Below, piece by piece: positions 1 through 51,657 of a stretch of 64,000 nucleotides of DNA (positions are counted from its first letter, which is position 1; every line of letters starts with the position of its first letter). The translations under genes and the position numbers were made by a program. The stretch comes from Eledone cirrhosa. Taxonomy: Eukaryota. Below the pieces are notes generated by a model. It saw only the letters and a list, made by a program, of their open reading frames with translations, ran no database searches and was not told the origin of the DNA. The stretch is from contig OZ024740.1 of NCBI GenBank assembly GCA_964016885.1, forward strand, positions 370,822,001 through 370,886,000. The letters are read 5' to 3'.

Positions 1-636
1 TATAAATTACACAATAATCCAAGCTAAGTTCAAATCATTTTATTGCTGACAATCGTTTCTTCCAAACTTTCGTTTGGAATCATCGGAGCACTAGCAATAT
101 TTGTACATCACACTACATCCACCATAAACTCATAATTTTAATACACAAACATCTTTGCCTGCTTGATATGCTTGTAAACCTATGTTATGTTATGTGATAT
201 CTTTGCCATGCAGTAATTATATATGCCTCGTACCATTGCTTGTTTCCTTCCTGTATATGCCGAACGCATTTGCATTCTCTATACGCTTGCCTATGTACTG
301 CTAGTGTCCTCGTTTTACGAGTAACTTTATACTTTAATGCCTCTTTAATTATTATACTATTCCCTTGTAATCTCTGTCGCATGCATTCCACTCTGTGCCT
401 TTTTATTTTTAATTTTAATTATTGTACAATTCTCTTGTAATCTATGTCGCATCCATTCCTCTCTGTAAATACGAAACTGCTGTTGACAACATTAATATCC
501 ATGTATCTATATGATTATTCAGTTGAATATGTACAAACATTGCTAGTGCTCCGATGATTCCAAACGAAAGTTTAGAAGAAACGATTGTCAGCAATAAAAT
601 GATTTGAACATAGCTTTGATTATTGTGTAATTTATA
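1..636. mobile_element. PLE-type foldback element (inverted arms 1-108 / 529-636) abutting (TA)n
   Basis: Arms are near-perfect reverse complements. Each carries an HHR followed by AATAAA. The right arm runs into (TA)n 633-790; the left end is at the window edge. Confidence 0.8.
547..593 (+). ncRNA. Type-I hammerhead ribozyme, U4C core variant (inverted copy at 44-90, minus strand)
   Basis: tgct-CCGATGA-ttccaaac gaaa gtttagaa-GAAAC gatt GTC-agca. Stem I tgct/agca. Stem II is 8 bp (perfect in the 44-90 copy) with a GAAA loop. GUC triplet. Confidence 0.7.
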
Positions 637-859
637 TATATATATATATATATATATATATATATATATATATATATAGATATAGATATATAGATATATA
701 TATATATATATATATATATATATATATATATATATATATATATATATATATATATATATATATATATATATATATATATATATATATATAACAAATAACT
801 ATCGCTCTATGTGGCTGAATACAACAAATGTAATCTGAGTTTTTCGAATATTAATAATT

Positions 860-1030
860 GTTTCTACTTTTGGCACAAGGCCAGAAATTATACCAGTGTA
901 TTACTGGTACTTTATTTTATCGACCTCGTAAGGATGAAAGGCAAAGTTAACCTCAACTTGATTTGAACTCAGACAGTAAAGGGACGTAACTATGTTAGAA
1001 AGCATGGCGTCTGACCCTCTAACGATACTG
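860..1030 (-). mobile_element. tRNA-derived SINE (octopus-type, Meta-like central domain)
   Basis: Reverse complement of GAGTTCAAAT (B-box)...TTTGCCTTTCATCCTT...GGTCGATAAAATAAAGTACCAGT...GGCCTTGTGCCAAAAGTAGAAAC. Isolated copies also at ~2300-2515, 4240-4365, 8060-8160, 23030-23160, 33380-33520 and 33710-33920. Confidence 0.85.
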
Positions 1031-1206
1031 CCTCTTTTAAGCCATGTCAGTAGAATGGCTCCTCATTCTTGCTCCTGTGTTGGCATGTAAACAGAACTTC
1101 AGACACTAATGTTTCTGGGTGATTACCCTTCATCAGTGCAATTTACTGCTCACCTGCCAACTGTCAGAGCTAGTCAAAATATATGATATTTCCTGAAATA
1201 TAAAGT

Positions 1207-1350
1207 GACTGATCGGCCTGATATGTATATTAGCAGAATGGCTGATCAGTCAGATCTGCATATTAGCAGATCCACTGATCAGCCAGATTTGCATATCATC
1301 AGATAGGCTAGTCAGTTTCATGTATACGAGCGATTAATGGCCGGCTTTGC
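1207..1350. repeat. Degenerate ~33-bp minisatellite (about 4 units)
   Basis: Repeated ctgatcagycagatytgcatattagcaga-like units. Confidence 0.6.
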
Positions 1351-1639
1351 CATATTCAAATAACTAACAAATGTTTTATCGCTCTACATGGCTGAATACA
1401 ACAAATCTAATCTGAGTTTTTCAACAAGTCTAATCAGAGCTAGTGAAAATATATATTTTCTGCATTATAAAAATACATCATGGCTGTGGGGAGGTTGATA
1501 CGGCTTATCAAGAGATCCCTAGAAAAAAGGATTGTTTCTTGACGCGTTCGTAGCAAGTCAGAAAATCTCTAGAGGCGGAGGGAGGAATTAACACGTGATA
1601 CAGGGTCATATATATATTCTCCTCATTTACACTGTCAGT

Positions 1640-2230
1640 CTTTCTCGCTCTCTCTCTCTCTTTCTATCTCTCTCTCACTCTCTCTCCCTCTCTCTCTCTC
1701 TCTCCCTCTCTCTCTCACATCTGTCTCTCTCTATCTCTCCCTCTCTCCCCCTCCCCCTCTCTCTCTCTCCCTCTCTCTCCCTCTCTCTCTCTCTCTCTCT
1801 CACCTCTGTCGCTCTCTCTCTCTCTCTCTCTCTCAATCTCTCTCTCTCTCTCTCCCTCCCCCTCTCTCTCTCCCCCCTCTTTACCTCTTAATTTTCCAGT
1901 TACACCTCTCCCACTTAGACCATTTCTCTTACTCCAACGGAACCTTACTCAGACACACAATCTCTCTCCTTCTTCCTCCCCCATATCTTCCACATTCCCT
2001 ATTTTACATTAGTTATTCTACTCCTATATGCTATTGTTGATATTCTTCTTCTTCTTCTTCTTCTTCTTCTTCTTCTTCTTCTTCTTCTTCTTCTTCTTCT
2101 TCTCCTCTTCGTTCTCTTCCTCCTCTTCGTTCTCTTCCTCCTCTTCGTCATTCTCTTCTCAACCTTATCCTCTTGTTTCTACTCCTCTTTCTTCTCATTC
2201 TTCTCTTTCTCCTCCTCCCTCTCTTTTTCA
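1640..2230. repeat. (CT)n / (TTC)n pyrimidine microsatellite block
   Basis: Visible directly in the sequence. Confidence 0.95.
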
Positions 2231-48711: not shown

Positions 48712-48877
48712 CAGTGTCGGATTTACCATTGTGCTTAGGTGTGCTTAAGCACAGGGCCCCATTGGCCGGGAGGGGCCCATCTTCAACCAAAACATTTTTT
48801 AACGATGAATTTTTTCAAAATTAAGGGCCTCATAACTTAACTAGCAGAGGGCTTCATTTGACCTAAATCCGGCACTG
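48712..48877. mobile_element. hAT-type MITE
   Basis: TIRs CAGTGTCGGATTTA / TAAATCCGGCACTG; imperfect 8-bp TSD caaacaga/catacaca. Confidence 0.75.
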
Positions 48878-49180
48878 CATACACATACATATATTAGAAA
48901 CTACGTAATATGACAGCTCCAGCGAACGAACCAGTAATTAGTAAAGGTTTAGTTAGTGTTATGCATAGTAGTTTAATTTTTGTATGTGGTTTTGAAGGGC
49001 GTGTTTAGTTTCTTCACTTTGTTTAGTGTGGTATATATATGGTATGTTAGGTGGGGATTTAGGTATATAGAAATTGCTCTTTGCATTTGTTTTCACTGTT
49101 TTTCATTATTGTCTTTGCATTCTCTCTCTCCCTCTCTCTCTCTCTCTCTCTCCCTCTCTCTCTTTCTCTCTCTCTCTCTC

Positions 49181-49925
49181 AGTTAAAACGACCATAATGT
49201 TATCTCGACCAGGGGAGATTAATAATAATAAAGTATGTCTCCCTACATGCAAAATACATATAGGGACACATGTATTATCCAACCGTATGCCAATGTGGTT
49301 CTATGGCAGGTTAATAAATTAACGAGCCAGAACATATACAATCAAGGTTTAGCAAATAAGAAAAAGTTTTAAAATAAATTTTTAAAAGTTCACTGTACCT
49401 GCTGTAATTACCCTTACCGTACGGTTTCAAGTCTCAAAATAAATAGATAATCCATGCGGAAATCCATTGAAAAGAAAGACTTTCGTCAGAGGGTTCTTTT
49501 CGCTCGGAGAATATAAAATTCCCGAGTTCAAATCATGAACTGGCGCCATTCAAAATTATTAATCTCCCTGGTCGAGATAACATTTTGGTCGTTTTAACTG
49601 CTGCTATTTCTAGTGGCAGGACATTGACCTTTCCGCCCTTGCCTTCTATCTTTACACACGGCACTAGACAGAATTGCTTCTTCATCATACACTCTCATCT
49701 CGGGAACAATTTTGAATGGCGCCGGTTCGTGATTTGAACTCGGGAATTTTATATTCCCCGAGCGAAAAGAACCCGCTGACGAAAGTCTTTCTTTTCAATG
49801 GATTTCCACATGCATTATCCATTTATTTTGAGACTTGAAACCGTACGGTAAGGGTAATTACAGCAGGTACAGTGAACTTTTTAAAATTTATTTTAAAACT
49901 TTTTCGTATTTGCTAAACCTTGATT
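49181..49925. mobile_element. Doubly inverted PLE-type element
   Basis: Inverted pairs 49340-49557 / 49708-49925 and 49181-49226 / 49555-49600, between (CT)n and (TA)n. Confidence 0.85.
49771..49855 (+). ncRNA. HHR with long stem-II insertion and palindromic stem III (inverted copy at 49410-49494)
   Basis: acccg-CTGACGA-aagtct..(~42 nt)..agactt-GAAA-ccgtacgGTA-agggt. Stem I is perfect (accct/agggt) in the minus copy. Confidence 0.85.
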
Positions 49926-50509
49926 ATATATATATATATATATATATATATATATATATATATATATATATATATATACAGAGAGAGAGAGGGATTGGGG
50001 AGAGAGGGATAGAGAGAGAGTTAAAGGGACGCCAACATGGAAAAATGGACGTTAAACAAGGATAAGAATGATTATATAAATGTGTGTGTGTATGTGTGTG
50101 TGCGCGCGTATACATAAGCTGGTGAAAAACACAAAACACTTTGAGAAATATCTGATAGTCACTCTTGTATTTCTAATATTGACAACGATGGCTTCATGAT
50201 TCAAATTTCAATCAAAACTTTGAAATCTTAGAGTTACATGGAATATAAATCCTGGGGGTTTCTTCGAGTATGTGGAGAGAGAAAAAGATAGAGAAAGATA
50301 TATAGAGAGAAGATCCTTATTAGTCAAGTTACGTATTGACTTACCTTGTAGCTGTGAAATATAAGCTTTCAAATTTTCTATCCAAAATGACTGACCATCC
50401 AGTTGTTCGCTTGTTATTAATAAACTGACCTACCCATCCGTACATACACATACCTACCTGTACCGCAGACCGCCCACTATCAGCAAGCTCCTTGGCCATC
50501 GTACAGTTG

Positions 50510-50675
50510 TGATGGTGGGGGGGGGGGTAATAGTGGCGGTGGTGGTGGCGATGGTGGTGGTGGTGATGTTGGTGTTGGTGGTGGTGGTGTTGGTGTTAGT
50601 GGTGGTGGTGTTGGTGTTGGTGTTGGTGGTGGTGGTGTTGGTGTTGGTGGTGGCGGCCGCGGTAGTGGTGGTGGC
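50510..50675. repeat. (GGT/TGT)n trinucleotide repeat
   Basis: Direct. Confidence 0.9.
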
Positions 50676-51541
50676 TGGAATTACTGCGAGGGGGTAGGAG
50701 GGTGTGACAGCGGGACTAACGATGGTGACATCTGCTGGTAAGTGTGGGGCGGACAATATTGCTTAACAAGAAATATAACACCGATAGAGGTAATGATATC
50801 GACGACGATGATCACAATCATCATCATCATCATCATCATTCTGATGATTACGGTAAGAACGTCGATAATTATGATAATCTAAACGGCCCACGCCATTTTC
50901 CTCCCTCTTTCACTCCCTTCTCTCTCTCTCTCTCTCTATCTCTCTCTCTCTCTCTCTCTCTCTCTCTCTCTCTCTCTCTCTCTCTCTCTCTCTCTCTCTC
51001 TCTCTCTCTCTGTATATATATATATATGTCTGTGCATATATATATATTTATATATATATATATTCTTTATATATATATATATATATATATATATATATAT
51101 ATATATATTCTTTATATATATATTCTTTATATATATATATATATATATATATATATTCTTTATATATATATATATATATATATATATTCTTTATATATAT
51201 ATATATATATATATATATATATATATATATATATATATATTCTTTATATAGGCCAAGATGGGCATTGTATGATGACTCAGTGAGTACAGAGGAGAAACTT
51301 CAGAGTAACAACACTTAAACTATGGTGGTGAGTACTCATTCTCGCAATCATCAGTGTATGTATACATATGCACATATGTATATATATATATATATACACA
51401 TATGTATATATATATATGTGTGTGTGTGCGTGTATGTATATATATATATATATATATATATATAACGAAGGAAATGTGGTAAGGAACCAGGTGGACCATA
51501 ACGCACCAAAGTACTCAATACTTAGGGTAGTAGAGTGGGTA

Positions 51542-51657
51542 ATAGGAACGAGTAGGACCCCGACGGCTGAGCTCAAGCCGTTTCGACGGCTAATTCCGTC
51601 CAGAATTAGCCGTCGAAACGGTTTGAGCTCAGCCGTCGGGGTCCTACTCGTTCCTAT
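51542..51657. repeat. 55-bp-arm hairpin carrying the 3' half of an HHR on both arms
   Basis: Arms 51542-51596 / 51603-51657 contain GAAA-cggc ttgagctca gccGTC-ggggtc. The same family occurs at ~25985-26025. Confidence 0.8.

Follow-up and report, generated by a model that had tools for sequence, protein, structure and literature searches.

Head-to-head insertions of Penelope-like elements in (TA)n tracts pair two fixed 3′ ends, a pattern consistent with twin priming

The 64,000-nt stretch analysed here (contig OZ024740.1, positions 370,822,001 to 370,886,000; hereafter the window) contains a series of inverted repeats, or foldbacks, which are real insertions of several families of Penelope-like elements (PLEs) into (TA)n tracts. 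An initial annotation had listed eight such foldbacks bearing hammerhead ribozymes and had claimed a single polarity for all of them. All eight are real, with arms 91-99% complementary, and in all eight the right arm is element-sense on the plus strand and the left arm on the minus strand. The list was nevertheless incomplete, since a ninth foldback of the same polarity lies at 31191-31600. Moreover, the intervals first proposed cover the paired parts only: one arm per insertion has an extra unpaired tail and the true extents are larger. We call the families of the eight foldbacks A to H and that of the ninth J; ‘L’ followed by a number names a locus. In each family elements stop at two fixed 3′ ends, a farther one, L, and a nearer one, S, which are 43-145 nt apart (for family G, as judged by eye only).

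The annotation also ascribed a hammerhead to both arms. This stands for five foldbacks, at 1-636, 8900, 20430, 30615 and 49340, in which the whole hammerhead-like motif is found in both arms, but those at 9841 and 13156 have a full hammerhead in the right arm only and that at 51542 has the 3′ half only, in both arms. The family A insertion (20330-21833, paired over 20430-21833, arms 98%) corresponds to the 3′ repeat of a PLE that appears Hydra-like; its left arm reaches L with a 103-nt tail (20330-20430) and its right arm stops at S. Predicted type I hammerheads lie at 21743-21787 on the plus strand, found by our motif descriptor and by Rfam (RF00163, 31.7 bits against a cut-off of 34, E 6e-4), and at 20476-20520 on the minus strand, again below the Rfam cut-off. 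This pair is the only hammerhead match that Rfam gave in the window at a relaxed threshold, most other matches being microsatellite miRNA models. In family B (30615-30950, arms 30615-30712/30721-30818, 99%), the right arm is of L type with a 43-nt tail, and hammerhead cores lie at 30758 (+) and 30675 (−). In family C (1-636, arms 1-108/529-636, 96%), the right arm is sense to S at 636, the left arm is antisense with a tail of ~145 nt running off the window start, and a variant core, CCGAUGA, is found at 551 (+) and 86 (−). The family D insertion (49180-49925, arms 49334-49557/49708-49931, 96%) has an S right arm, a left arm that runs through L and ~47 nt into the unit that follows, and long-stem-II hammerheads at 49776 (+) and 49489 (−). 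That of family E (8814-9782, arms 8900-9316/9366-9782, 96%, 49-nt spacer) combines an L left arm (tail ~8814-8901) with an S right arm; the motif in both arms has a CAGAAGA core, which recurs in 37 of 51 copies.

The remaining insertions are shorter or less symmetrical. In family F (9841-10237, arms 9841-9902/10081-10142, 98%), the left arm stops at S and holds a hammerhead 3′ half, while a complete hammerhead, at 10047, and a tail, at 10143-10237, are found in the right arm. Nested in this insertion, at 9912-10020, is a perfect 54-bp hairpin with a 1-nt loop, suggestive of repeated template jumps. The family G mini-insertion (13156-13326, arms 13156-13198/13215-13257, 91%) has an S left arm and a right arm with a hammerhead at 13203 and a tail to ~13326. 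The family H mini-insertion (51465-51657, arms 51542-51596/51603-51657, 98%) has an L left arm (tail 51465-51542) and an S right arm, and was oriented by longer copies and by an open reading frame (ORF) ~1.2 kb upstream on the same strand. In the ninth, family J, the right arm has the longer end, and the family is that of a hammerhead-bearing foldback in L100. As to the claim that 3′ ends face outward into (TA)n, one arm does so directly in seven of the eight foldbacks, whereas the other arm of these seven first has a tail of 78-145 nt; in the eighth, at 30615, the tail is on the right arm and the left arm ends ~92 nt short of S. Two further window foldbacks, with arms of 125 nt (29975-30269, (TA)n directly on both sides) and 38 nt (14718-14802, beside a TA-rich run), could not be oriented and had no second copy among the loci compared. 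Single, non-foldback copies of hammerhead families are found on the minus strand at 10335-10456, 24446-24501, 1101-1136 and 26133-26167.

The assignment to PLEs, already suggested by the annotation, is borne out by long family A copies. The 870-aa ORF of L041 displays reverse transcriptase (RT) motifs followed by a GIY-YIG nuclease (NIVY...YIG), although a Pfam search of this ORF returned no RT or GIY-YIG match. Of 7,990 scored candidates, 731 are its relatives at E 1e-20 or better, and the closest named one is from Argonauta hians (43% identity), which would fit the cephalopod host supposed by the annotation but does not establish it. Families A, C, F (~1.5 kb; L057, L083) and H (L067, L088, L101) have a related ORF upstream of them on the same strand, at consistent distances in C, F and H, and families B, D, E and G are without a linked ORF. 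Long family A copies form partial tandems with a unit of ~5.1 kb (L032; tandem units in L004/L032 and L014/L036), and an inverted copy flanks the ORF in L031 and L222. The elements have the hallmarks of endonuclease-containing (EN+) PLEs: a single ORF with RT and GIY-YIG, pseudo-long terminal repeats (pLTRs) formed by partial tandems together with an inverted 5′-truncated copy, a tail at one end and a hammerhead motif in the pLTR. Insertions are flanked by (TA)n, within which target-site duplications are unreadable.

By motifs read by eye (DKT, RWR, a CxCx5C linker, CxxC and CxH around conserved E and N, no CCHH), the family A ORF appears Hydra-like. It shares with the Hydra clade, as described in section 11 of PMC8557442, the RT to GIY-YIG order, DKT, CxCx5C, CxxC/CxH, the lack of CCHH, a canonical hammerhead and (TA)n targets; it differs in that the RWK of that clade reads RWR, and in a unit of ~5.1 kb where the clade is ‘generally’ below 3 kb. 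The Neptune clade was considered and rejected, as it needs a CX2-5CxxC linker and CCHH. A second, unrelated PLE-like ORF is present at L048:2-2308 and L225:4118-8700, in a head-to-head arrangement in L225. Family D is a non-coding unit of ~480 nt, often in tandem (partial tandems in 9 of 29 loci), and resembles animal non-LTR retrozymes, which are regarded as PLE derivatives (bioRxiv 10.64898/2026.07.22.740005), in both respects and in its hammerhead; it differs from those described there by inserting with the S/L head-to-head layout. At L078:4140-9766, hammerhead units of 556 nt, at least nine in number and also retrozyme-like, form an array. Three variant cores, CCGAUGA, CAGAAGA and UUGAGAA, are predicted hammerhead cores. 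The last is found in long family H copies (L067, L088, L101, L111, L148) in place of CUGANGA; positions 3 and 8 have changed as a pair, which is presumably compatible with hammerhead activity.

The polarity extends well beyond the window. We sampled 79 evenly spaced 10-kb stretches (790 kb) of the 3.0-Gb assembly, in which the hammerhead descriptor gave 67 matches, compared with 3 for control strands (reversed and complemented). Of the 67, 3 are of low complexity and 9 belong to a single tandem array. Foldback matches oriented by the motif numbered 33, with locus L120 left out of the library and two insertions counted twice; 27 were head-to-head, 4 ambiguous, these being head-to-head on inspection, and 2 convergent. 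The two convergent cases, L115 and L124, were rejected as foldbacks, a TA tract separating their 3′ ends as in separate insertions. Among 55 tight foldbacks (inter-arm gap up to 60 nt), 27 could be assigned to hammerhead/Penelope families and all 27 are head-to-head. These 27 account for 3,435 of the 7,098 paired bases of tight foldbacks and amount to 34 per Mb; if the sample is typical, extrapolation would give ~100,000 in the genome. Among the 28 unassigned ones, 15 have TA on exactly one side. Neighbouring same-family copies on opposite strands told the same story: in 76 head-to-head pairs the arms were never separated by a (TA)7 tract, and all 9 tail-to-tail pairs had a TA run between them (8 long, 1 short) and therefore represent separate insertions.

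For a tRNA-like short interspersed element (SINE) of the same DNA, neighbouring copies were head-to-head in 11 cases and tail-to-tail in 10; the polarity bias is thus specific to the PLE families. Head-to-head pairs of the SINE do occur in the window, at 42448-42707 and at 45116-45881 (an inverted copy, then three tandem copies), with no bias for it genome-wide. Several broken copies of an endonuclease-RT long interspersed element (LINE) lie on the minus strand of the window (35924-36268/38038-38382 and 53000-63400), and, in contrast to the PLE foldbacks, an inverted duplicate of 345 nt lies tail-to-tail with its parent. The descriptor recognized no hammerhead in another abundant family of foldbacks (L071:6815-7114, L088:5202-5446, L107:40-332, L124:6488-6782), which has TA on one side and a centre at a constant position.

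The two arms of an insertion do not choose their ends independently. We called S and L ends for the 76 head-to-head pairs found across all the loci collected; 68 were classifiable and 8 were not. One L and one S arm were combined in 63 of the 68, with 3 LL and 2 SS pairs (expected fraction 0.50, p 4e-14). The figure was 30 of 31 in families E, F and H, whose choice did not depend on any search. The automated calls failed for family G, yielding one SS and one unclassified pair. An alignment-based count of families A to D, whose loci overlap those above, gave 34 of 41 after exclusion of duplicates of the second arm (6), segmental copies (4), a locus without an anchor (1) and loci truncated at an edge (6). 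In five cases (L162, L182, L192, L211, L218) the inverted arm consists of the tail only and abuts an S-ended sense arm; the two arms share no sequence, and therefore neither was copied from the other. Where arms do overlap, 86 non-majority variants are common to the two arms of an insertion over 36 pairs; sibling copies would lead one to expect 18. The centre gap is at most 2 nt in 6 of the 27 tight PLE foldbacks.

The positions of the centres are also informative. A spacing of ~30 nt below a TATA box is a mark of transcription start sites. Short arms of family B end 31-35 nt below TATAAAA in 28 of 36 cases, in a test biased by its query, and the centre of the insertion in the window coincides with this 5′ pile-up. 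For family H, 42 of 65 short arms end 24-33 nt below TATTTAAA, and the centre of the window insertion is the fixed stop of the family, ~30 nt below the TATA-like box. In family G, long copies examined by eye have CCAAT and TATA boxes ~30 nt above the point where short copies start, which is where the centre of the window insertion lies. Family B junctions at the pile-up point include both end-to-end and zig-zag joins. A natural hairpin fixing the family B centre was considered and rejected, a long copy having no inverted repeat there.

Taking as directly observed the polarity, the two 3′ ends, their S/L pairing, the tail-only arms, the variants shared between arms and the pile-ups below TATA-like boxes, we think it probable that the head-to-head insertions in (TA)n are made by twin priming on a sense RNA, one end starting at L and the other at S. 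The GIY-YIG nuclease would cut both strands, as another PLE does in vitro (PMC11167929). Both ends of the cut (TA)n target would then prime reverse transcription on sense RNA, one primer starting at the far site L and the other at the nearer site S. PLE RTs are not known to have RNase H. A single RNA could serve both primers, with the enzyme that started at L displacing the cDNA begun at S. The inner ends of the two cDNAs would then be joined through short homology or end-to-end jumps. The fixed centres of families B, G and H may reflect run-off at the RNA 5′ end. The annotation had already proposed twin priming, and the pairing in 63 of 68 cases together with the tail-only arms is a stronger signature than the one it gave. 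The hammerhead polarity is then a by-product of insertion geometry and not a function in its own right.

Several observations weigh against this scheme or its generality. Five of the 68 pairs are LL or SS (7 of 41 deviate by the alignment-based count), and 52 of 103 copies in families A to D have no inverted arm. The tail-only arms could come from later asymmetric deletion. Fold-back copying would also leave shared variants, as would gene conversion at a later time, and for 13 of 36 pairs an arm resembles its partner no more than it does the median sibling. No short read bridged a window-specific junction in the raw reads examined. For the Poseidon element of Anolis carolinensis, PAc, the start site was not seen to differ between strands, so that S/L exclusivity is not reproduced in vitro (PMC11167929). 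As for the centres, the spacing in family B suffers from the query bias, the automated 5′-end test found no long copies of family G, and no TATA box accompanies the 5′ pile-up of family E; together with the TATA-less internal promoter of Drosophila virilis Penelope (PMC2377424), this last point implies that TATA-spaced centres are not general.

A considerably less likely alternative, and the strongest of the rivals, is single priming followed by fold-back, in which an L-primed cDNA snaps back, or an antisense template primes itself (PMC3846280), and copies itself until halted or cut at S by the bound RT-nuclease. It would account for the variants shared between arms, the short spacers and the one-sided tail; self-priming is a published hypothesis (PMC3846280) and PMC8557442 ascribes the tail to nuclease resolution. 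The five tail-only arms, however, are impossible by this route without a later deletion. In addition, centres where both arms stop at the same last base with a gap of 0-2 nt (L132, L159) are not closable by one strand, and centres at predicted sense start sites speak against an antisense template.

Twin priming could also proceed on two separate RNAs held by an asymmetric dimer, with one start site per subunit, which we regard as improbable. PAc is predicted to be a dimer (PMC11167929), and the LL/SS exceptions and very unequal arms would then need no strand displacement. Yet variants are shared 4.8 times more often between arms than between siblings, and in L026 the two inner ends are equal, both at −587 and away from hot spots, which suggests one molecule. 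Finally, chimeras of assembly or amplification, or palindromes created after insertion by replication errors, would fit the failure to find a locus-specific bridging read piece but are very hard to credit, because the arms differ by 0-11%, stop at family-specific S/L points without continuing into the flanks and show one polarity where SINEs in the same DNA show none, and because joints of the same type exist in independent short reads, the family D joint from antisense tail to sense being present in a second study, in raw Illumina reads of two samples (21 reads in one and 8 in the other, each with 2 starts). Several other ‘opposite strand’ read joints were not counted, being merely sense copies that match the other arm.

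Twin priming on one sense RNA, the reading we prefer, has to be set against what is known of PLEs. Twin priming in LINE-1 leaves 3′ ends outward and 5′ ends meeting inside, with arms that do not overlap. The PLE insertions have the same outward 3′ ends and inner 5′ ends, and their tail-only cases are equally non-overlapping; they differ in having a fixed second site and, in most cases, overlapping arms that produce a palindrome. The architecture itself is known, polarity and one-sided tail being published PLE features: the head-to-head inverted pLTR is ‘the most frequently observed’ arrangement (PMC3846280), Fig. 2 of PMC8557442 depicts this layout, and the same paper reports (TA)n targeting as well as the inverted copy and the tail on one side, while hammerheads in pLTRs are described in PMC4209133. 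Our insertions share with EN+ PLEs such as Pen2a_Av (PMC3846280; PMC8557442) the inverted 5′-truncated copy, the tail at one end, partial tandems, the pLTR hammerhead and microsatellite targets. They differ by tails of 43-145 nt instead of 30-40, by being mostly short, very dense non-coding palindromes, and by an end pairing that is counted and not just described.

A close biochemical counterpart is PAc: in vitro, it cuts and extends each strand of the target, with synthesis beginning at two sites that delimit the tail (PMC11167929). It shares with our families these two internal start sites, the use of both strands and AT-rich targets. It differs in that, in the accessible text of that paper, inverted arms are not linked to the start sites and no strand preference between sites is reported. 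Section 15 of PMC8557442 calls the origin of PLE tandem and inverted structures unresolved, and the available part of PMC3846280 offers only self-priming on an antisense template. In a partial literature search, which left most subscription journals outside, we found no paper counting S/L pairing or proposing twin priming for PLEs. The value of this work lies in a counted pairing rule, a start-site prediction and one probable editing fossil. For the PAc in vitro system, the counts predict that the start sites are used in complementary fashion, that both nicks are required and that centres fall on the sense start site.

The annotation further supposed that read-through transcripts would form long double-stranded RNA (dsRNA), a likely substrate for ADAR. 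Bearing on this are very stable predicted hairpins and one editing-like scar in 201 foldbacks, but families A to D show no overall A>G excess. If transcribed, the hairpins are predicted to fold with z scores of −26 and −36, the ribozyme pairing with its mirror copy. On this modelling, a read-through insertion would form a long hairpin sequestering its own ribozyme, and would likely be an ADAR substrate. A general sense-strand A>G excess was not found in families A to D (153 A>G against 194 T>C; 8 against 13 among shared variants).

ADAR avoids a 5′ G. A family B foldback, L137:1396-1790 (G000:C4, ~90,473,780-90,474,170), has 22 differences from its family, of which 16 are A>G on one strand. 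These 16 fall into both arms (5 and 11), and the unedited sequence has no G immediately 5′ of any of them. It is the sole such case in the screen of 201 foldbacks, from which overlapping and low-complexity arms were left out and 42 of which had at least 6 transitions (strand bias 12:0, p 0.0005, uncorrected). We consider it a likely ADAR scar. In the simplest reading, hyper-editing affected an entire hairpin transcript, which reverse transcription from its S end then turned into this copy.

Lizard Penelope is reported to be heavily edited, and octopus to have an exceptionally high fraction of near-perfect hairpin loci together with the strongest hyper-editing, the repeat responsible not being named in the portion available (PMC5625713). 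More tentatively, and with somewhat greater chance of failing than of holding as a whole, the twin-primed PLE palindromes (~100,000 by extrapolation) could be the main source of near-perfect dsRNA in this genome, hyper-edited on read-through and re-copied as edited hairpins, and the rule of one S and one L arm would come from an enzyme loading both cut ends on one RNA made from the pLTR TATA promoter. At least 27 of the 55 tight foldbacks are made by PLEs and, if the genome is that of an octopod, these insertions would be a concrete candidate source of the near-perfect hairpins of octopus.

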